From positions 1,429,136 to 1,493,135 of the forward strand of contig OZ244210.1 in assembly GCA_965216835.1 (NCBI GenBank): a stretch of 64,000 nucleotides of DNA, given 5' to 3'. The notes under the pieces are model-generated. The model made no database searches. It saw nothing but the letters and a program-made list of their open reading frames with translations, and had not been told where the DNA came from. The position numbers were made by a program, and so were the translations under genes. Source of the stretch: a bacterium. GTDB taxonomy: Bacteria > ARS69. Shown here in pieces: positions 4,258-62,663 of this stretch. Position 1 is the stretch's first letter. Each line of letters begins with the position of its first letter.

Positions 4258-5991
4258 ATGTCGCCGGCTCCGCGGCGGGCCCCGGCCGTCGCCCTGCTCG
4301 CGCTGGCGCTGACGGCCGGCGCGGCGCACGCGTGGCCGTCGCTGTCCGGCGGCGGGGAAGGTCTGCTGGACGTGCGGTCCGCTCCGGTGGGCGGTCCCGG
4401 CGCGCTCGGGATCCAGATCGGTTCGTGGTCCTACCAGCACTCCGCGGGATCCGTGCCCGGCGACCGGCAGGACCGGTTCGTCTCGGACGGCGGCCTGCAC
4501 GTCACGTACGGCATCGGCGGCTGGGGCGAGGCGTACCTGCGGGGCAATCTCGCGTTCTTCGCCATCGACACGTTCAAGCCCATCTCCAACCGTGACGCGC
4601 AGGTGGGCCTGAAGGTCTCGTCGCCGCGGCGGTACGGTCCCGTCATCCCGGGGATCGTCCTGGACCTGAACCTGCCGGTCGGCAACCGGACGCGCGGCTT
4701 CTCCACGGACGCGCTGGATCCCGGCCTCACGGCGCTGTTCACCGTGCCGCTCCCGGAGTCCAACACGTTCAGCGCCGCGAACCTGCACTTCAACCTGGGT
4801 TACCGCGCGCACGGGGACGATCGGGGTCGGACGTACGAGGGCTGGCCGCTGTACTACCTGGAGCCGGTCTATCCGGAAGGCGAGAACGATCGCCTGGACC
4901 TGCGCGCGGCGGTGGAGGTGGTCTCCTCCGAGACGACGCTGTTCGGCGAGCTGCTGCTGGACCAGCTCCTCCACGAGGACATCGCGTTCTCCGAGTCGCC
5001 GATGTTCGTGAGCCTCGGGTTCCGGCGCGGGATCTCGGACCACTTCTCGCTGCTGGGCGCGACGAAGATCGCCCTCTCCTCGGACGATCCCGGCACCACG
5101 CGGTTCCGCGACGTGGAGGACCTGTTCCCGGACTGGCAGTTCGGGCTGGCGCTGGCCTGGTCGCGCGGCGGGTCGGGCGCGGACGCCGACGAGGACGGCG
5201 TGCCGGATCTGCTGGACCAGTGTCCGCATCAGCGCGAGGACCTCGACGGCTGGATGGACGAGGACGGCTGCCCCGACGCGGACAACGACGGCGACGGCGT
5301 GAAGGACGAGTTCGACGGCGATCCCGATCGTCCGGAGGACTACGACGGCTACCTGGACACCGACGGCATCCCGGACCCGGACAATGACGGCGACGGCATC
5401 CCCGACACGGAGGACGAGTGTCCGCTGGGGCCGGAGGATCTGGACGGCGTCGCGGACGAGGACGGCTGCCCGGAGACCGATGCGGACGGCGACGGCATCC
5501 CCGACGAGGGGGACTCCTGCCCGGAGGAGGCGGAGACGCTGAACGGCATCGAGGACGATGACGGCTGCCCGGAGGACGACACCAACGTCCGCACGTCGCG
5601 GCCGCTGACCCGCATCCGTTGGGAAGGTGACGCCGTTCAGCCGGAGCGGGGCGGTTTCGTGGAGCTGGGCGAGCTCGTCTCGCAGCTGCAGGCGGACCCG
5701 ACCATCCGGCTGGAGATCCGGGTGCGCACGCTGACCGCCGATGCGGACGATGCCGCGTTCGAGCTGGGGGTGCAGCGGGCCGAGTTCCTCAAGGCTTACG
5801 TGGTGGCCAGCGGCGGTGACGTCGAGCGGATCCGGGCGATCGGCGAGGCGGGGCCGGACCCGCGGACGGGCTACACGGGCTCCCGCCCGAACGAGGGGCG
5901 CGCCCGCGTGACGTGGGTGAAGTCTCCGGAAACCGAGAGCCCGGAGGAGTCGAACGCGCCGGACGATGCGGGGGCCGGGGAGGCTCCCTAG
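4258..5991 (+). CDS. OmpA-family outer-membrane protein with thrombospondin type-3-like Asp-rich repeats and a degenerate OmpA-like C-terminal domain
   Basis: Signal peptide (ALLALALTAGAAHA), N-terminal beta-rich region, then about 8 tandem DxDxDGxxDxxD-type repeats (DEDGCPDADNDGDGVKDEFDGD...), then an OmpA-like C-terminal segment. Confidence 0.8.
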   Translation: MSPAPRRAPAVALLALALTAGAAHAWPSLSGGGEGLLDVRSAPVGGPGALGIQIGSWSYQHSAGSVPGDRQDRFVSDGGLHVTYGIGGWGEAYLRGNLAFFAIDTFKPISNRDAQVGLKVSSPRRYGPVIPGIVLDLNLPVGNRTRGFSTDALDPGLTALFTVPLPESNTFSAANLHFNLGYRAHGDDRGRTYEGWPLYYLEPVYPEGENDRLDLRAAVEVVSSETTLFGELLLDQLLHEDIAFSESPMFVSLGFRRGISDHFSLLGATKIALSSDDPGTTRFRDVEDLFPDWQFGLALAWSRGGSGADADEDGVPDLLDQCPHQREDLDGWMDEDGCPDADNDGDGVKDEFDGDPDRPEDYDGYLDTDGIPDPDNDGDGIPDTEDECPLGPEDLDGVADEDGCPETDADGDGIPDEGDSCPEEAETLNGIEDDDGCPEDDTNVRTSRPLTRIRWEGDAVQPERGGFVELGELVSQLQADPTIRLEIRVRTLTADADDAAFELGVQRAEFLKAYVVASGGDVERIRAIGEAGPDPRTGYTGSRPNEGRARVTWVKSPETESPEESNAPDDAGAGEAP

Positions 5992-44921: not shown

Positions 44922-45065
44922 GTGAAGCTGATCCTCATGATCCTGCTCGGCATCTTCGCGCTGAACGCCGTCGTCATCCTGTTCATCTCGGGGATCCTCG
45001 TCCTCGATCACCTGAAGACCCGTCGTCGGGAGTCCAAGAATGAGAGCACCGCGAACGTTTCGTAG
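44922..45065 (+). CDS. Candidate small single-pass membrane protein (47 aa)
   Basis: Unannotated ORF VKLILMILLGIFALNAVVILFISGILVLDHLKTRRRESKNESTANVS: one hydrophobic helix plus a basic tail, very high third-position GC. Overlaps the next gene start by 26 nt in another frame. Confidence 0.3.
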   Translation: MKLILMILLGIFALNAVVILFISGILVLDHLKTRRRESKNESTANVS

Positions 45066-45933
45066 CCTCGTCCTGGTCGGTCTGTTCCTGCTGGCCCTCG
45101 CCGGGTGCGGCGGGGACAAGCTGGACCCCCGGCTGCAGGAGGGCTACGACCTCGTCGTGGCCGGCAAGGTGGACGAGGCCATCGCGCTCGCCAATGCGCT
45201 GCTGGCCGATGATCCGGGCAACGCGGAGGCGCGCAACCTCATCGGTCTGGCGCTGTACAAGGCCGGAGACACGCAGGGCGCCATCGAGCAGTTCCAGCAG
45301 TCGCTGGAGATCAAGCCGGACTACCCGGAGGCGCACTTCAACCTCGGCAACGCCTACCGGATGCTGCAGCGACCCGAGGACGCGCTCCGGGAGTACGAGC
45401 TGGCGGTGGAGTACCAGCCCAGGTTCGTGCTGTCGCACTACAACATCGGAACGCTCCACCAGGAGTCCGGCCAGCCGGACGAGGCGCTGACCGCGTACCG
45501 GAAGGCCGTGGACTACGATCCGCAGTTCTTCTATGCGTACGTCGGGATGGGCAAGATCCTCTATGAGTCGGGGGACTTCGAGAACGCGGCGTCCAACCTG
45601 GCCCGGGCCCTGGAACTCTCGCCCGCCCAGAAGGAACTGCGCGTCCTGCTCGGGAACGCCTACCTGCAATCCGGCCGGTCGGATGCCGCCGCCATGGCGG
45701 AGACGGAGTTCCGCGCGGCGGTCGGCGTGGATCCGGCCTACGTCGACGCGGTGTACAACCTCGGCGTCTCGCTCCACGCGCAGAACCGCGTCGACGAGGC
45801 GGCCGACCAGTTCGGCCGCGTGCTGGAACTTATCGGCGAGGATCCCGCGCGGCAGGGAATGGTCGACCAGGTCAACTCGTTCCTGCAGCAGTACCAGGCG
45901 GCCGACGGCGAAGGGGCGGCGCAGGAAGGCTAG
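45040..45933 (+). CDS. TPR-repeat lipoprotein
   Basis: Signal peptide with lipobox (LLALAGCGG), then about six TPR units (AEARNLIGLALYKAGDTQGAIEQFQQSLEIKPDYPEAHFNLGNAY...). Confidence 0.7.
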   Translation: MRAPRTFRSLVLVGLFLLALAGCGGDKLDPRLQEGYDLVVAGKVDEAIALANALLADDPGNAEARNLIGLALYKAGDTQGAIEQFQQSLEIKPDYPEAHFNLGNAYRMLQRPEDALREYELAVEYQPRFVLSHYNIGTLHQESGQPDEALTAYRKAVDYDPQFFYAYVGMGKILYESGDFENAASNLARALELSPAQKELRVLLGNAYLQSGRSDAAAMAETEFRAAVGVDPAYVDAVYNLGVSLHAQNRVDEAADQFGRVLELIGEDPARQGMVDQVNSFLQQYQAADGEGAAQEG

Positions 45934-45996
45934 CGCGCCCGCCGTTCGCTCCACATTCCACCTCCCCGGACCCCGATCCTCCCCGGGGAGGTTGCG

Positions 45997-47547
45997 TTGC
46001 TCGCTTGCGCCCTGACCGTCGCGCTCGGCGGTATCGAAGCCCATGCCATCCACGTCGAGGCCGACGTCACCCCCGGTCTGCCGCACACGCAGATCGTCGG
46101 CCTGCCGGACGCCGCCGTCCGCGAGTCCAAGGAGCGCGTTCACGCGGCGCTCCGGAACTCCGGCTACGAGTGGCCGGCCGCCCGCATCACCCTGAACCTC
46201 GCGCCCGCCGAGCTGCCCAAGGAGGGGAGCGGCTTCGACCTGCCGATCGCCCTCGCGCTGCTGGCGGCGTCGGGGCAGGCGCCGCCCGGGGCGCTCCGCG
46301 ATCTCCTGTTCGTGGGAGAGCTCTCCCTGGACGGCAGCCTGCGTGCCGTGCGCGGCGCTCTGGTCTTCGCGCTGGCCGCCCGCGAGCGCGGGGCGCGGGG
46401 AATCGTCGTGCCGGAGGGGAACCGGCGAGAGGTGTCGTCCGTGGAGGGACTGCCGGTGGGCGCCGCCGCGACCCTGCGGGAGGTCGTGGATCGGTTGCCG
46501 GCTTCGGACTTCCTGCAGCCGGCGCCCGGGCTCGACGCCCGCGCGCGGGAGATTTCCGGCCCCGATCTGTCCGAGGTGCGCGGCCAGGAGGACGCCCGCC
46601 GCGCGCTGGAGATCGCCGCAGCCGGCGGCCACAACCTGCTGCTCATCGGCCCGCCGGGCACCGGCAAGACGATGCTGGCACGCCGGCTTCCCACGCTGCT
46701 GCCGCCGCTGGAACCGGCCGAGGTGTTGGAGGTCACGCGCATCCACTCCGTCGCCGGCTCGCTGGGGGCGGAGGGCGAGCCGGTGACGCAGCCTCCGTTC
46801 CGCGCGCCGCACCATACCGTCTCCGACGTGGGCCTGGTGGGCGGCGGCAACCCGCCGCGCCCCGGGGAGGTGAGCCTCGCGCACCGCGGCGTCTTGTTCC
46901 TCGACGAGCTGCCGGAGTTCCGTCGCTCCGCGCTGGAGTCGCTCCGGCAGCCGATCGAGGATCGGCGCGTCGCCATCGTGCGCGCGCGCCGGTCCGCCAC
47001 GTTCCCGGCCGCGTTTCAGCTCGTCGCGTCCATGAACCCGTGCCCGTGCGGCCGGTCGGGCGATGCGCGCCGCCCCTGCCTGTGCACGTCGCCGGAGATC
47101 CGCCGCTACCGGTCGCGCGTGTCCGGACCGCTGCTGGACCGCATCGACCTGCACGTGTGGATGCCGCCCGTCGAGCTGGAACGGCTCACCGGCGCCGAGA
47201 CGGGGGAGACGTCGGCCGCGGTCGCGCGCCGCGTGGAGGAGGCGCGCCGGCGCCAGCTCCGGCGACGGGAGGCGACGCCCTCGCTGCCGTCGCGCAACGC
47301 GGAGCTGGAGGGACGGGCGCTGCGCCGCCTGTGCGCGCTGCCGCCCGACGCCCCCGCGCTGCTCGCGACGTCGCTGCGCCGCCGCGGACTCTCGGCGCGG
47401 GCGGTGCATCGCGTGCTCCGCGTGGCGCGCACACTGGCGGATCTCGAGGGATGCGAGACCGTCGGGCTGACTCATCTCGCCGAGGCCGCGCGCTACCGAA
47501 TCCTCGCCGACGGCCCCGCGGCGCCGGACGCCCAGGCCGTCCGGTAA
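45997..47547 (+). CDS. comM: YifB/ComM-family Mg-chelatase-like AAA+ ATPase
   Basis: N-terminal Lon-protease-like domain (GLPDAAVRESKERV, ITLNLAPAELPKEGSGFDLPIALALL), Walker A GPPGTGKT, Walker B VLFLDELPEF, and C-terminal zinc-ribbon-like Cys cluster. TTG start. Confidence 0.9.
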   Translation: MLACALTVALGGIEAHAIHVEADVTPGLPHTQIVGLPDAAVRESKERVHAALRNSGYEWPAARITLNLAPAELPKEGSGFDLPIALALLAASGQAPPGALRDLLFVGELSLDGSLRAVRGALVFALAARERGARGIVVPEGNRREVSSVEGLPVGAAATLREVVDRLPASDFLQPAPGLDARAREISGPDLSEVRGQEDARRALEIAAAGGHNLLLIGPPGTGKTMLARRLPTLLPPLEPAEVLEVTRIHSVAGSLGAEGEPVTQPPFRAPHHTVSDVGLVGGGNPPRPGEVSLAHRGVLFLDELPEFRRSALESLRQPIEDRRVAIVRARRSATFPAAFQLVASMNPCPCGRSGDARRPCLCTSPEIRRYRSRVSGPLLDRIDLHVWMPPVELERLTGAETGETSAAVARRVEEARRRQLRRREATPSLPSRNAELEGRALRRLCALPPDAPALLATSLRRRGLSARAVHRVLRVARTLADLEGCETVGLTHLAEAARYRILADGPAAPDAQAVR

Positions 47548-47586
47548 GCCCTGGACTCCAGCCGGGCGCCGCTCCAGACTCGCGCC

Positions 47587-49623
47587 ATGGACGATGCACC
47601 CCGTCTCGCCCGGCCGCAGTCCCGTCCGCATGCCGTCGCCAGCGGCGCGCTCCTCGGTGCCGCGCCGCTGACGGCCATGCTGCTGGCCCGGTCGCCCGCG
47701 CCGCCGTTCGCGGTCCCGTTTCCGGGCGCGGCGCCCGCGCTGGCCGTCGTCACGGCCGTCGCGCTGATCGTCGCGGCGCTGACGTGGCCGCGCAACGAGA
47801 CCGCCGGTCGCGCGGCGGTAACGGTGGCACTGGCCGGAGCCGCGATGCTCCTGCTGCCGGCGGCGATGGCGTCCCCGTTCCTCGCGCTCGTCCTGCTGCT
47901 GGCCGCCACGGCGGCGCTGGCCTCCATCTGGAACCTCACCGGCGCGTTTCCGCGTCGCGTGTCCGCCGATGCGCTGGTGCCCGGCCGCGCCCGCGGCGCC
48001 AGCCTTGCCGCGCTGGCGGGCTGGGCGGTTTCGTCGACGCTGCCCGGCGGTGCCACGCCGCTGGAGGAGACCGCGGTCCGCGTGTCGCTGCTCCTCGCCG
48101 CCGCGCTGGTCCTCTTCTGGGCGTTCGGCGCCCGCGGGGTCGCGCGCAGCCGGCTCCTGGCCATCGCACTGGCGGCCGTGGCGGCGGGGCTGGCCGTGCT
48201 GCTCCGCCGCGAGACGGAGGGCGGCGTGATCCTCGTCGCGGTCTCGGCGGCCGCGATCCCCCGCGCGCGTCGCGGTCCCATCGACTGGGAGGTCTGGTGG
48301 GAGCCTCTGCTCGGGAACCCGCAGCGCCTCGTCGTGGGGACGTTCGCCGCGCTGATCGTCGCGGGGACGTTCCTCCTGGCGCTGCCCGCGCTGTCCTCCG
48401 ACGGCGCCGGACTCGCGCCGCTGGACGCCGCCTTCACGGCGGTGAGCGCCGTGTGCGTCACGGGCCTCATCGTCGTGGATACGGCGACCGCGTTCACCGT
48501 GCCCGGCCAGGTCTTGATCCTGATCCTCATCCAGCTCGGCGGTCTGGGGATCATGACCTACTCCACGGTGCTCCTGCAGGCGCTCGGCCGGAGGATCAGC
48601 CTGCGCCACGAAGGCGCGGTCGCGAGACTCCTCAGCTCGCAGGATCGCGGCCGCCTGTTCGAGGCGACGCGTCGCGTGCTGCTGTTCACGTTCGCGTGCG
48701 AGGCGCTCGGCGCGATCGCCCTGTTCGCGGGCTTTCTCGCCGCCGGGGACGCCGCCGGTAGCGCGGCCTGGCGTGCCGTGTTCACGTCGGTGTCGGCGTT
48801 CTGCAACGCGGGCTTCGCGCTGGACACGGAGTCGCTGATCGCCGTCGCCGATCAGCCGGGGATCCTGCACACCGTTGCGCTGCTGATCATCCTGGGCGGT
48901 CTCTCGCCCGCGGTCGTGCTCGTCGTGCCGCGGTGGTTCCGCCGCGGCACCCGGCCGGTTCCGCTGCAGGCGCGTCTGACGGTCACGGCGGCCGGCGCGC
49001 TGCTGGCGGTTGCGTTCGTCTTCTTCGCGGCCGTCGAGTGGACGGGGGCGCTGGGTCATCTCCCGGCCGTCGACCGCCTGCACCACGCGTGGTTCCAGTC
49101 CGTGACGCTGCGAACGGCGGGCTTCAACAGCGTCGACCTTTCGGCCGTGAACGCATCCACGCTTTCCCTCATGATGGCGTGGATGTTCATCGGGGGGAGC
49201 CCCGGGGGCACGGCGGGCGGGATCAAGACGACGACCGTCGCGCTGCTGATCCTGTCCGTCGTCCAGACGGTGCGCGGTCGGGCACGGGTGACGGTCGCCG
49301 GACGATCCATCCCGGAGGCCTCGCTGCGGCAGGCGGGCGTCGTGGTGACGCTGGCGGCCGCGTTCGTGGGCCTGCTGATCGTGGCGCTGCAGCTGACGCA
49401 GGACATGCCGGCGCGTCTCGCCGTGTTCGAGGCGGTGTCGGCGTTCGGGACCGTAGGGCTGTCCATCGGGGGAACGGCCCTGCTGGACGGCCCGGGCAAG
49501 GTGATCGTGATGGTCGGGATGTTCGTCGGCCGCGTGGGGACGCTGACGCTGCTGATGTTCCTGGCCCAGCGGGAGAACGCACCGGTGCTGCGCCGGCCGG
49601 AAGAGGACGTGGACGTCGGTTAG
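47587..49623 (+). CDS. trkH: TrkH/KtrB-family K+ transporter with a roughly 230 aa N-terminal polytopic extension
   Basis: Core carries selectivity-filter-like repeats (IQLGGLG, SAFCNAGF, GGSPGGTAGGIKTTT). The preceding Ala/Leu-rich region with about 5 predicted TM helices is in frame and has coding-like codon bias. Confidence 0.8.
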   Translation: MDDAPRLARPQSRPHAVASGALLGAAPLTAMLLARSPAPPFAVPFPGAAPALAVVTAVALIVAALTWPRNETAGRAAVTVALAGAAMLLLPAAMASPFLALVLLLAATAALASIWNLTGAFPRRVSADALVPGRARGASLAALAGWAVSSTLPGGATPLEETAVRVSLLLAAALVLFWAFGARGVARSRLLAIALAAVAAGLAVLLRRETEGGVILVAVSAAAIPRARRGPIDWEVWWEPLLGNPQRLVVGTFAALIVAGTFLLALPALSSDGAGLAPLDAAFTAVSAVCVTGLIVVDTATAFTVPGQVLILILIQLGGLGIMTYSTVLLQALGRRISLRHEGAVARLLSSQDRGRLFEATRRVLLFTFACEALGAIALFAGFLAAGDAAGSAAWRAVFTSVSAFCNAGFALDTESLIAVADQPGILHTVALLIILGGLSPAVVLVVPRWFRRGTRPVPLQARLTVTAAGALLAVAFVFFAAVEWTGALGHLPAVDRLHHAWFQSVTLRTAGFNSVDLSAVNASTLSLMMAWMFIGGSPGGTAGGIKTTTVALLILSVVQTVRGRARVTVAGRSIPEASLRQAGVVVTLAAAFVGLLIVALQLTQDMPARLAVFEAVSAFGTVGLSIGGTALLDGPGKVIVMVGMFVGRVGTLTLLMFLAQRENAPVLRRPEEDVDVG

Positions 49624-49631
49624 GAGACGGC

Positions 49632-50291
49632 ATGGAACGACAGGCGATCGTCATCGGCCTCGGCCAGTTCGGGCTGGCCGTGGCGCGGGAACTCACGAAC
49701 CGTGACGTCGGCGTGCTGGCGGTGGACCTGCGCGAGGATCGAGTGCGGGCGGCCGCGGAGTTCGCCACGGATGCGGCGTGCTTCGATGCGACCGAAGAGG
49801 AGGCGATGGCGCGCCTCTCGCCGGAGCGCCGCGACCTCTGCATCTGCGCGATCGGCGACGAGGCACGCGAGGCGTCGATCGTGTGCACGGCGCTGCTACG
49901 GCAGATGGGCGGGCCGCGCGTCATCGCCCGCGCCAGCGACGACCTGCACGCGCGCATCCTGACGCTGGTGGGGGCGCACCAGATCGTGAACCCGGAGTGG
50001 GAGTTCGGTCTCCGGTTCGCCAGCCGCATCCTACACGACGGCATCCGGGCGCAGATGCCGCTGGGCTCGGATCTCGTCGTCAGCGAGGTCGAGGCGCCCA
50101 CGTCCCTCGTGGGGCATCCGCTGGCGGAGCTGGAGCTGTCGCGTCGGTTCGGCGTCAACGTCGTGGCGATCCGGCGCGGCGATCAGGGCGCGGTCGTCCT
50201 GCCGGAGCCGTCCACCGTCCTCGAGGCGGTGGACATCGTCGTGCTGGTCGGGCGGGAAGAGGCCGTCGGCCGGTTCGTGGACGCGGACTGA
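49632..50291 (+). CDS. trkA: K+ transport regulatory subunit (RCK_N plus RCK_C; TrkA/KtrA-like)
   Basis: Rossmann motif IVIGLGQFG at the N-terminus and a TrkA-C-like C-terminal domain. AGGAGACGG RBS; 8 nt after trkH. Confidence 0.75.
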   Translation: MERQAIVIGLGQFGLAVARELTNRDVGVLAVDLREDRVRAAAEFATDAACFDATEEEAMARLSPERRDLCICAIGDEAREASIVCTALLRQMGGPRVIARASDDLHARILTLVGAHQIVNPEWEFGLRFASRILHDGIRAQMPLGSDLVVSEVEAPTSLVGHPLAELELSRRFGVNVVAIRRGDQGAVVLPEPSTVLEAVDIVVLVGREEAVGRFVDAD

Positions 50292-51214
50292 TGGAACTGC
50301 GCCGGGAACTCGTCGTGGCCATCGGGGCCCTGGTGCTCCTGAACGCGCTGCTCGCATTCGGGGCGATCGGCCTGTTCGTGCGGATGGGGCCCGTCATCGA
50401 CGGCATCCTGCAGGAGAACGTGGCGCAGGTCGTCGCGGCCGAGGGGATCGTCGATGCGCTGGTCGGCGGGGCCGGACGCTCCGCGTCGCCGGAGGTTCGC
50501 GCGCGCGTGCAGGCGCGCGTGGACTCGTTCTCGGAGCCGACGTCCGACGATGCGGAGCGCGTCGCATTGGAAGCGCTGCGAGCGCGGCTCCCGGCCGCGC
50601 TGGAAGGGGATGCGTCCGCCACCGAGGCGGTCGTGGCCGAGGCGGGGACGATCATCCAGCTGCGGCGCGACGCGATGTCCCGGGAGGTCGCGCGCACGGG
50701 ACAGCTCGGCCGCGCGGGAGCGTGGGCGGCCGTGCTCGTGGGTCTCGCTTCCTTCGTGGGCAGCCTGATCGTCTTCCGCCGCTTCCGGCAGCGACTCGTG
50801 GATCCCCTCGTCGACGTGTCGCAGGTCCTGGAGGACGTGCGGTCCGGCGATCGTTTCCGGCGCGCGCGCCCGCAGGCCGCGCCCGCGGAGCTGCGCAAGG
50901 TCCGCGACGCAGTCAACGCGCTCCTGGACGAACGCATCGCACCGCGCCGGACCGACGGCGATGCGGATCCGCGCGCGATCCGCCTCGCCCTCCTGCACCT
51001 CCTGGGCGACCTGCCCGGCCCAGCCGTCGTCACGGACCGCACCGGCAAGGTGCTGGCCGGCAACGACGCCGCGCTGGAGGCGCTGGCGGGGAGCAGGGGC
51101 GATGCGCTGCGGGCGGCGCTGGAAGAGGCGGTGGACGGCGTGGAGACCTCGACGGTGCAGGCGGCGGAGCTGCCCGACGGAGGCGGCTGGATCGCTCGCT
51201 GGGACGCGGGCTAG
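50291..51214 (+). CDS. Hypothetical membrane sensor-like protein (TM, periplasmic loop, TM, HAMP-like linker; no output domain)
   Basis: 307 aa. Two TM helices (LVVAIGALVLLNALLAFGAIGLFV and AWAAVLVGLASFVGSLIVF) flank a roughly 110 aa loop; HAMP-like amphipathic region follows, then a short PAS-start-like tail. ATG overlaps the trkA stop. Confidence 0.5.
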   Translation: MELRRELVVAIGALVLLNALLAFGAIGLFVRMGPVIDGILQENVAQVVAAEGIVDALVGGAGRSASPEVRARVQARVDSFSEPTSDDAERVALEALRARLPAALEGDASATEAVVAEAGTIIQLRRDAMSREVARTGQLGRAGAWAAVLVGLASFVGSLIVFRRFRQRLVDPLVDVSQVLEDVRSGDRFRRARPQAAPAELRKVRDAVNALLDERIAPRRTDGDADPRAIRLALLHLLGDLPGPAVVTDRTGKVLAGNDAALEALAGSRGDALRAALEEAVDGVETSTVQAAELPDGGGWIARWDAG

Positions 51215-62173: not shown

Positions 62174-62261
62174 GGAGGGATGGCCGAGTGGTTGAAGGCG
62201 ACGGTCTTGAAAACCGTTGAGCCGCAAGGCTCCGTGGGTTCGAATCCTACTCCCTCCGCCA
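62174..62261 (+). tRNA. tRNA-Ser (anticodon TGA), class II with long variable arm
   Basis: 88 nt: acceptor GGAGGGA/TCCCTCC, anticodon loop CTTGAAA, extended variable arm, encoded CCA. Confidence 0.85.
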
Positions 62262-62298
62262 CCGCTTCGGCGGCGGAGGGCGGAGGTTCCCACGGCTC

Positions 62299-62390
62299 CC
62301 CGGATCCCGGAGAGGTGCGAGAGTGGCTGAATCGGGCCGCCTGCTAAGCGGTTGGGGAGAGAAATCTTCCTCGAGGGTTCGAATCCCTCC
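62299..62390 (+). tRNA. tRNA-Ser (anticodon GCT), class II with long variable arm
   Basis: 92 nt: acceptor GGAGAGG/CCTCTCC, anticodon loop CTGCTAA, long variable arm, encoded CCA. Confidence 0.85.
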
Positions 62391-62407
62391 CTCTCCGCCA
62401 CATCTCG

Positions 62408-62484
62408 AGGTTGTTTCGCGCCCATAGCTCAATCGGATAGAGCGTTTGGCTACGGACCAAAAGGTTGGGGGTTCGAGTCCTCCT
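62408..62484 (+). tRNA. tRNA-Arg (anticodon ACG)
   Basis: 77 nt: acceptor GCGCCCA/TGGGCGC, anticodon loop CTACGGA, T-loop TTCGAGT, encoded CCA. Confidence 0.85.
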
Positions 62485-62663
62485 GGGCGCGCCAACCTGA
62501 AGCCGTGCGGGGCCCCGCGATGCGGACGCCCCGTACCGGCTTCCCAGCGACCCGCCCCGCACGTCGTCCCGCGGGCGGATCGTTCACCCGCCGTCGCGCG
62601 CAGAGTCCCGTCCGCTCCCCCCGGAGCCGGCCGGATCGGCGCGGGGCCGCAAGGAGATGGGGA

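Follow-up and report, generated by a model that had tools for sequence, protein, structure and literature searches.

A ktrBA locus with an extended pore gene and an overlapping gene for a sensor-like membrane protein without an output domain

Ktr- and Trk-type K+ uptake systems are regulated from within the cell, where ATP/ADP, Na+ and cyclic di-AMP (c-di-AMP) act on the RCK ring and the N-terminus of KtrB takes part as well; their sensing of outside conditions is poorly understood. Here, three consecutive genes were analyzed in a stretch of 64,000 nucleotides with a GC content of 72 % (contig OZ244210.1, positions 1,429,136 to 1,493,135, assembly GCA_965216835.1, GTDB lineage ARS69), which is called the window below and whose own numbering is used throughout. 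The genes encode a KtrB pore subunit with a long N-terminal extension (KtrB-long), its RCK partner KtrA and a third membrane protein (the sensor protein) which resembles the sensor part of NarQ. On balance, we consider it probable that the three genes specify a KtrAB-type RCK-gated K+ channel together with a sensor subunit that lacks an output domain of its own and acts directly on the channel.

When the locus was compared with the KtrAB systems of Bacillus subtilis and Vibrio alginolyticus (PDB 4j7c, 7zp9), a domain of 240 amino acids (aa) with eight transmembrane (TM) helices was seen to be added before the KtrB N-terminus. No third membrane-protein gene was found in the solved or described KtrAB systems, whereas the window has one, which appears to be translationally coupled. 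Third subunits are known for Trk/Ktr systems, namely SapD/TrkE and KtrE, and the likeness lies in an extra protein that is required by or modulates the transporter (PMC9898762). SapD of E. coli is an ABC-type ATP-binding protein and in this is unlike the sensor protein of the window. To our knowledge, KtrE of the Synechocystis KtrABE system is not a HAMP or TM-sensor protein. Full-text searches of the literature gave no paper in which a HAMP protein or an N-terminal membrane extension is connected with KtrB or TrkH, and the trio appears to be undescribed. Its parts are all of known kinds (KtrAB, four-helix-bundle sensors, HAMP); what is new is their combination and the output that it implies.

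All three genes lie on the + strand, in the following order:

47587..49623, + strand: ktrB-long, 678-aa K+ pore subunit with an N-terminal eight-TM domain and a KtrB core
49622..49626, + strand: Shine-Dalgarno-like AGGAG, 5 nt before the ktrA ATG, read from the sequence
49632..50291, + strand: ktrA, 219-aa RCK regulatory subunit with TrkA_N and TrkA_C and the nucleotide motif GLGQFG
50291..51214, + strand: sensor-like gene, 307 aa, whose ATG overlaps the ktrA TGA

The stop codon of ktrB-long (TAG, 49621-49623) is followed by the AGGAG and then by the ATG at 49632. This ATG, which the AGGAG precedes at 49622-49626, was taken as the start of ktrA (219 aa); a reading from position 49623 would give a product three codons longer (222 aa). 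A preliminary description of the window, made from the letters alone, had noted that the ATG of the 307-aa protein overlaps the stop of the RCK gene. The two codons do share one base (TGATG, at 50291), and this stop/start overlap suggests translational coupling of ktrA and the sensor gene. A kinase joined by a frameshift further downstream, which had been named as something to look for, is not present: the TAG of the sensor gene shares 4 nt (CTAG, 51211-51214) with the stop codon of a convergent gene for a PabC-like class-IV aminotransferase, and thus no kinase gene can follow on the + strand. The same overlap leaves no space for a terminator between these two genes.

When the sensor protein was modelled with AlphaFold2, a confident model was obtained (predicted local distance difference test, pLDDT, 89.4) with the following parts:

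50303..50380, + strand: TM1 (aa 5-30; LNxLLAFGAIGLFVRMGP), the best-conserved segment of the family
50381..50710, + strand: periplasmic four-helix-bundle sensor domain (aa 31-140)
50711..50785, + strand: TM2 (aa 141-165), followed on the cytoplasmic side by the basic RRFRQR
50786..50938, + strand: HAMP-like domain (aa 166-216), with P172 in AS1, G186 in the connector, and E200 and N209 in AS2
50969..51211, + strand: PAS-like alpha/beta domain (aa 227-307) with four strands, found in the long subclass only

One helix (aa 2-59) comprises TM1 and the first periplasmic helix, further periplasmic helices are placed at aa 67-78 and 87-104, and a continuous helix of 77 residues (aa 108-184) runs through the fourth bundle helix, TM2 and AS1 of the HAMP domain. 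AS2 follows after the connector (aa 199-216), and this helix-connector-helix aligns with the TM-HAMP part of NarQ. The best structural match found with Foldseek was the TM-sensor-TM-HAMP fragment of NarQ, and together with the model it bears out the earlier proposal of a TM, periplasmic loop, TM and HAMP-like layout. In structural alignments, the protein is only 11-18 % identical to NarQ and NarX (PDB 5iji, 3ezh). Those kinases have DHp and catalytic domains and a phospho-accepting histidine, whereas the protein of the window has none of the three. A counterpart of the P-box arginine of NarX/NarQ (R50 in NarQ) was not noticed in the family alignment, on which no formal test was made.

The C-terminal domain consists of three helices (aa 227-240, 259-266 and 270-280) and four strands (aa 245-249, 254-257, 289-293 and 299-304). 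Its approximately 80 aa gave weak matches to PAS, PAS_4 and MLTR_LBD, all under the cut-offs, and Foldseek matches to PAS domains with E-values of 0.03-0.5. A PAS domain is a five-stranded antiparallel sheet with flanking helices of about 100-110 aa, and on the model the domain of the window is best called PAS-like. The protein had been thought to end in the mere start of a PAS domain with no output domain behind it. The second part holds for the family as a whole; the first does not, as the end is a compact PAS-like mini-domain which is confined to the long subclass.

A profile search was carried out against 1.84 billion representative proteins (clusters at 50 % identity; cut-off E<=1e-30) and returned a sensor family of 491 representative clusters. 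The best 150 of these 491 representatives are all 215-378 aa long and without an output domain. Among 89 close homologues, two size classes were observed, neither with an output domain. Members of the short class (217-246 aa) end directly after HAMP, and those of the long class (299-335 aa; 294-361 aa for the long subclass of the family) carry the PAS-like domain. No HisKA or HATPase_c match was found in the window protein and 34 family members, and no MCPsignal match in any of these 34; a length of 215-378 aa is also too short for a methyl-accepting chemotaxis protein (MCP), which is the JGI label on many homologues. The searches for HAMP and PAS models called for by the preliminary description gave a Pfam HAMP match in 14 of the 34 members (best E-value 1.7e-5) and weak matches to PAS types in the long ones. 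The HAMP residues P172, G186, E200 and N209 are invariant in the family, and the periplasmic motifs ENxxS, NVTE..E and INRxAM as well as the HAMP motifs are near-invariant across phyla. No match was found when PDB sequences were searched with the family profile, and a dedicated Pfam or NCBIfam model exists neither for this family nor for the KtrB extension. The product of the third gene is a sensor module that lacks an output domain.

Long spurious open reading frames (ORFs) occur in high-GC genomes, for example antisense at 44983-49086 of the window, and it was therefore considered that the third gene could be a decaying histidine-kinase pseudogene, or that the KtrB extension could be untranslated with an internal start. 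The G+C content of third codon positions (GC3) is 0.80-1.00 in the extension, as in the core, and 0.87-0.97 in the third gene, values like those of the neighbouring genes. The ratio of nonsynonymous to synonymous substitution rates (dN/dS) was calculated by the Nei-Gojobori method against a metagenomic contig (L049) on which these genes are 91-98 % identical in nucleotide sequence and show no insertions or deletions. It was 0.235 for the N-terminal extension, 0.148 for the KtrB core, 0.040 for KtrA, 0.125 for aa 1-216 of the sensor protein and 0.298 for its PAS-like part (aa 217-307), against 0.07-0.16 for flanking housekeeping genes. The extension and the sensor gene are under purifying selection. 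With in-frame GC3 and low dN/dS (0.13-0.30 for the parts in doubt) in the absence of indels against this contig (93-96 % identical), the internal start and the pseudogene both fail as explanations. The uniform lengths of the best 150 family representatives, extension motifs kept across phyla, and a KtrB ORF that always reaches at least 226 codons upstream of the core, unless a contig end truncates the locus, speak in the same direction, and we give an artefact hardly any weight.

KtrB-long was divided into the following parts:

47587..48306, + strand: N-terminal extension (aa 1-240) with eight predicted TM helices, in the AlphaFold2 model at aa 16-34, 48-66, 71-95, 97-116, 127-151, 158-181, 187-205 and 209-223
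48256..48327, + strand: extension-pore linker (aa 224-247), IPRARRGPIDWEVWWEPLLGNPQR, with the conserved motif WWEP..HPERL
48307..49620, + strand: KtrB core (aa 241-678) with the GGSPGGTAGGIKTTT gate loop and R649
48463-48465, 48811-48813, 49120-49122 and 49456-49458, + strand: selectivity-filter glycines G293, G409, G512 and G624, one per P-loop

Pfam TrkH covers only aa 254-660 of the 678 aa, and the KtrB chains in PDB align to aa 243-675 (E-value ~1e-68), so that about 240 N-terminal residues are left unmatched. The locus had been described as TrkH/KtrB with an RCK partner. Both genes are indeed present, but the pore belongs to the KtrAB subtype and not to TrkAH: the family profile for the four membrane-pore-membrane repeats is matched, and a glycine is found in all four P-loops. 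G293, G409, G512, G624 and R649 are invariant across 51 long KtrB sequences. The K+ filter and gate motifs are intact, and KtrA-dependent K+ transport is predicted. The ktrA product matches Pfam TrkA_N (E-value 2.5e-24) and TrkA_C (E-value 6.9e-16), and it has an N-lobe with the GxGxxG site (GLGQFG), a C-lobe and a length of 219 aa compared with about 220 aa for KtrA. Its closest solved relatives are KtrA and KtrC (PDB KtrA 7zp9_H, E-value 2e-37).

The extra polytopic N-terminal domain proposed by the preliminary description is real by the measures given above, and it is conserved. AlphaFold2 modelling of KtrB-long with 51 sequences (pLDDT 82; predicted TM-score, pTM, 0.80) placed eight helices within aa 16-223. 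Because the number of helices is even and basic residues lie in alternate loops, the model fits a topology with both termini in the cytoplasm, which agrees with the cytoplasmic N-terminus of KtrB. Relatives share the extension, as had been suspected: when it was aligned over 19 loci of different phyla (identity 21-35 %), G20, P97 and W115 were invariant and G74, R75 and G137 near-invariant. No start other than ATG 47587 lies upstream of the conserved G20. The extension remained unmatched in Pfam and NCBIfam scans, it is covered by no chain in PDB, and no internal duplication was detected in it (hhalign of aa 12-120 against aa 121-232, 1.5 % probability). A search of a large protein collection with an extension-only alignment returned nothing, probably as Ala/Leu-rich words swamped the candidates. 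The full-length query worked, and the best 120 relatives of the window KtrB are nearly all 635-750 aa long. The eight-TM domain is thus far without a recognised relative.

In the linker, W238, P245 and R247 are conserved, and the linker occupies the place of the usual KtrB N-terminus. In Vibrio, this N-terminus is short, disordered and located at the KtrA-KtrB interface, and it is needed for ATP-driven opening (PMC12059179).

The genomic context of the sensor gene was examined in several ways. Five homologues examined singly each lie directly after a TrkH-family gene of 647-695 aa and an RCK gene of 217-223 aa, with unrelated flanks. A scan of species-representative genomes gave 35 loci, all metagenome-assembled, from Polyangiaceae, Haliangium, other Myxococcota, Bdellovibrionales, Eisenbacteria, Planctomycetota, Acidobacteriota, Gemmatimonadetes and Leptospiraceae. 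The co-occurrence with the pore and RCK genes, which had been put forward for checking, was complete: in 44/44 loci fetched via the sensor protein, the KtrB core and KtrA are encoded immediately upstream on the same strand, and wherever the contig permits, 226 or more codons of the KtrB ORF precede the core. The genes flanking the trio vary between loci. In the reverse direction, five of five long KtrB genes (four on long contigs and P0128) are followed by ktrA and then by the sensor gene.

P0128 (469 aa) was at first sight a short KtrB relative and was rejected as such: on its Logan contig (L050) a frameshift interrupts the extension, and a sensor gene is present as well. The frameshift (4460-5093), probably an assembly error, yields a spurious Arg-rich protein of 245 aa in addition to the 469-aa KtrB, and the case is a caution for length-based censuses. 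In one genome (L034, 3839-5203), ktrB-long and ktrA are separated by a gene whose 454-aa product has a signal-peptide-like N-terminus, and the sensor gene still stands directly after ktrA.

As an unbiased control, metagenomes were scanned with KtrB core motifs as seeds, which gave 80 loci, mostly of ordinary KtrB (31-49 % identity). Fifty-eight of the 80 have ktrA and at least 700 nt downstream. Among these, the sensor gene is present at six loci and absent at one where the extension is long (at least 225 codons and 6 TM helices), and present at one and absent at 50 where it is not. The long extension and the sensor gene co-occur (Fisher p=1.2e-6).

A third class of KtrB was also observed, whose N-terminus is longer by 125-170 residues and has 2-5 predicted TM helices, mostly on AT-rich contigs and never with a sensor gene (L059, L066, L067, L074, L077, L087, L092, L093, L097, L098, L101, L110, L112, L113, L122, L126 and L129). 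These extensions are unrelated to the eight-TM extension by hhalign (0.1 %). N-terminal membrane add-ons of KtrB may be more varied than the literature suggests.

At two loci of the control (L069, 538-3725; L076, 295-3557), a kinase with four-helix-bundle, PAS, HisKA and HATPase domains and a sigma-54-type response regulator are encoded directly upstream of an ordinary ktrBA. The sensor-family profile aligns with the first 308 residues of the kinase (hhalign 97 %, E-value 3.6e-11, 255 columns), and ILxxNxxSI, N(V/I)TE and (I/L)N..AM are common to both, as are the HAMP motifs and the first part of the PAS domain. The homology is limited to the sensor half. The same sensor module is thus tied to Ktr in two arrangements, as part of an upstream two-component system and as a kinase-less protein coupled to ktrA. 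The kinship also explains why some homologues carry the JGI labels 'NtrY-type kinase' and 'MCP'. The kinase and regulator seem to form a two-component system that serves ktrBA specifically and has apparently not been described. The sensor family may well have arisen from a kinase of this kind that lost its catalytic half. If so, the loss would be ancient and fixed and not a recent decay. In Proteobacteria, a loose ntrYX-trkAH neighbourhood has been reported for 23-27 % of plrS homologues, and the likeness is that of a HAMP-PAS sensor beside Trk/Ktr genes (PMC13001219). Both ntrYX and the systems of the two contigs are complete two-component systems, upstream of the transport genes and presumably transcriptional, whereas the sensor gene of the window has neither kinase nor regulator and stands directly after ktrA. 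The two Ktr-linked arrangements offer a natural comparison for a rewiring from transcriptional to direct control.

The same homology could be read in another way. HAMP and PAS are dimerisation modules, and the sensor half of these sigma-54-regulator-linked kinases is homologous to the entire sensor protein. As a co-sensor or anti-kinase, the protein could use its TM, HAMP and PAS helices to pair with a full-length histidine kinase, a paralogue encoded elsewhere, and so affect the transcription of, for example, K+ or osmotic genes and not the channel itself. However, no paralogue is encoded within the 64-kb window, and at the loci inspected the gene is always right after ktrA, often with a stop/start overlap, and never beside a kinase or regulator. 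Members of the short subclass, moreover, stop right after HAMP. We regard this alternative as unlikely.

For the sensor subunit itself, the following mechanism can be envisaged. KtrB-long would provide the K+-selective pore together with an eight-helix domain joined to the pore's regulatory N-terminus, and KtrA the nucleotide-gated cytoplasmic ring. The third protein would be a NarQ-like sensor module that lost, or never had, a kinase, and it would sit as a dimer beside the channel, associated through its unusually conserved TM helices and/or HAMP. It would read a periplasmic cue, most plausibly an ionic one (K+, Na+ or osmolality), and the resulting conformational change would travel along TM2 and HAMP and reach KtrB or KtrA because the proteins touch directly. 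The regulatory linker at the KtrB N-terminus may be held in place or shifted by the extension. In this manner, external conditions would tune K+ uptake post-translationally and not via transcription. The context in favour of an accessory sensing subunit, as already suggested in the preliminary description, is strong (synteny, coupling, and homology to ktrBA-linked kinases); from it we infer the role as such, and the same applies to a physical complex, to the direction in which regulation runs, to the ligand and to the contacted surface, be it the extension, the pore core or the KtrA ring. The full version, a HAMP receptor with an ion channel as its output, in which the sensor binds KtrB-long and KtrA, a periplasmic ligand or ionic cue gates K+ uptake and the eight-TM domain couples to the KtrB N-terminus, is put forward only tentatively.

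Several observations weigh against a sensor subunit of this kind. The protein of the window replaces residues which are otherwise near-invariant (S46Q, N83P, T85S, E86D, N125R, A136T, R138Q and C192A; 91-97 % conserved in the family), most of them in the periplasmic bundle, and its ligand site or specificity may be altered or lost. It also lies below every Pfam HAMP threshold and has only an NCBIfam match to a YfiN HAMP region (E-value 2.2e-6), far under the cut-off. All homologous loci come from metagenome-assembled genomes or metagenomes. One contig (L062, 4444-7097) has the sensor gene with a regular KtrB of 455 aa, and another (L064, 3484-5835) has a KtrB with a 343-aa N-terminal region of eight predicted TM helices and no sensor gene. 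Finally, co-evolution of the extension and the sensor protein beyond their shared history was not supported (partial Mantel r(N,H|C)=0.14, permutation p ~0.08).

The first of the two contigs is AT-rich and of metagenomic origin, with a divergent pgi, KtrB, ktrA and, next, a family member of 209 aa whose start overlaps ktrA; it is the only sensor gene without a long KtrB that was encountered. A relaxed TM1 in this member was considered: its TM1 identity to the consensus is low (0.38), yet it is equally divergent throughout, and two members partnered with a long KtrB are similar. On the second contig, the N-terminal region has no detectable homology to the extension of the window (hhalign probability 1 %). 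With these two exceptions, the extension and the sensor gene are separable, and the two are linked tightly but not obligatorily. The extension, the core, KtrA and the sensor protein show correlated pairwise distances (r=0.77-0.88), and these four parts are therefore inherited as a unit. Because the partial correlation is weak, the extension cannot be named as the docking site.

The absence of specific co-evolution would also suit a mere conserved operon habit, in which the third gene is unrelated to K+ transport. We consider this very unlikely, as synteny is found at every locus examined, in at least six phyla and with unrelated flanks, the gene is translationally coupled by its overlap, the association holds in the control, and the homologous sensor module of full kinases is ktrBA-linked as well.

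The pattern of conservation bears on a further alternative. The mean top-residue frequency in the family is 0.78 in TM1, 0.73 in the membrane-proximal first periplasmic helix, 0.70 in TM2, 0.64 in HAMP and lowest, 0.51, in the middle of the bundle. The high values in TM1 and the proximal helix are unusual for sensor TM helices and suggest contacts within the membrane. A structural or assembly factor for the large KtrB-long, which takes no part in signalling and whose sensor-like fold is an evolutionary relic, could show such a peak in TM1/TM2, and it could also lose several near-invariant periplasmic residues, as the window protein did, and yet be under purifying selection. This role is nevertheless improbable, since the periplasmic and HAMP motifs are near-invariant across phyla and common to the related kinases, and since one member accompanies a regular KtrB without the extension.

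If the sensor-subunit reading is true, a dedicated periplasmic sensor subunit would give the channel an outside-in input without a transcriptional step. Such a receptor-gated KtrAB would add a non-enzymatic class of output to HAMP signalling, and the sensor family concerned is a large one that occurs widely among phyla of soil and water (Myxococcota, Planctomycetota, Acidobacteriota and Gemmatimonadota).

The gap between comM and ktrB-long is only 39 nt. No Rfam match, and thus no candidate riboswitch, was found in this gap, nor was a sigma-70-like site or a terminator. The antisense ORF mentioned above (44983-49086, - strand) has 1367 codons, runs across the TPR, comM and ktrB genes and is Arg-, Gly- and Asp-rich; it was rejected as a gene and regarded as an ordinary high-GC artefact. 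The window also contains a complete rRNA operon and a tRNA cluster:

21688-23243: 16S rRNA
23439-23777: two tRNAs
23995-27003: 23S rRNA
27113-27229: 5S rRNA
62174-62491: cluster of three tRNAs

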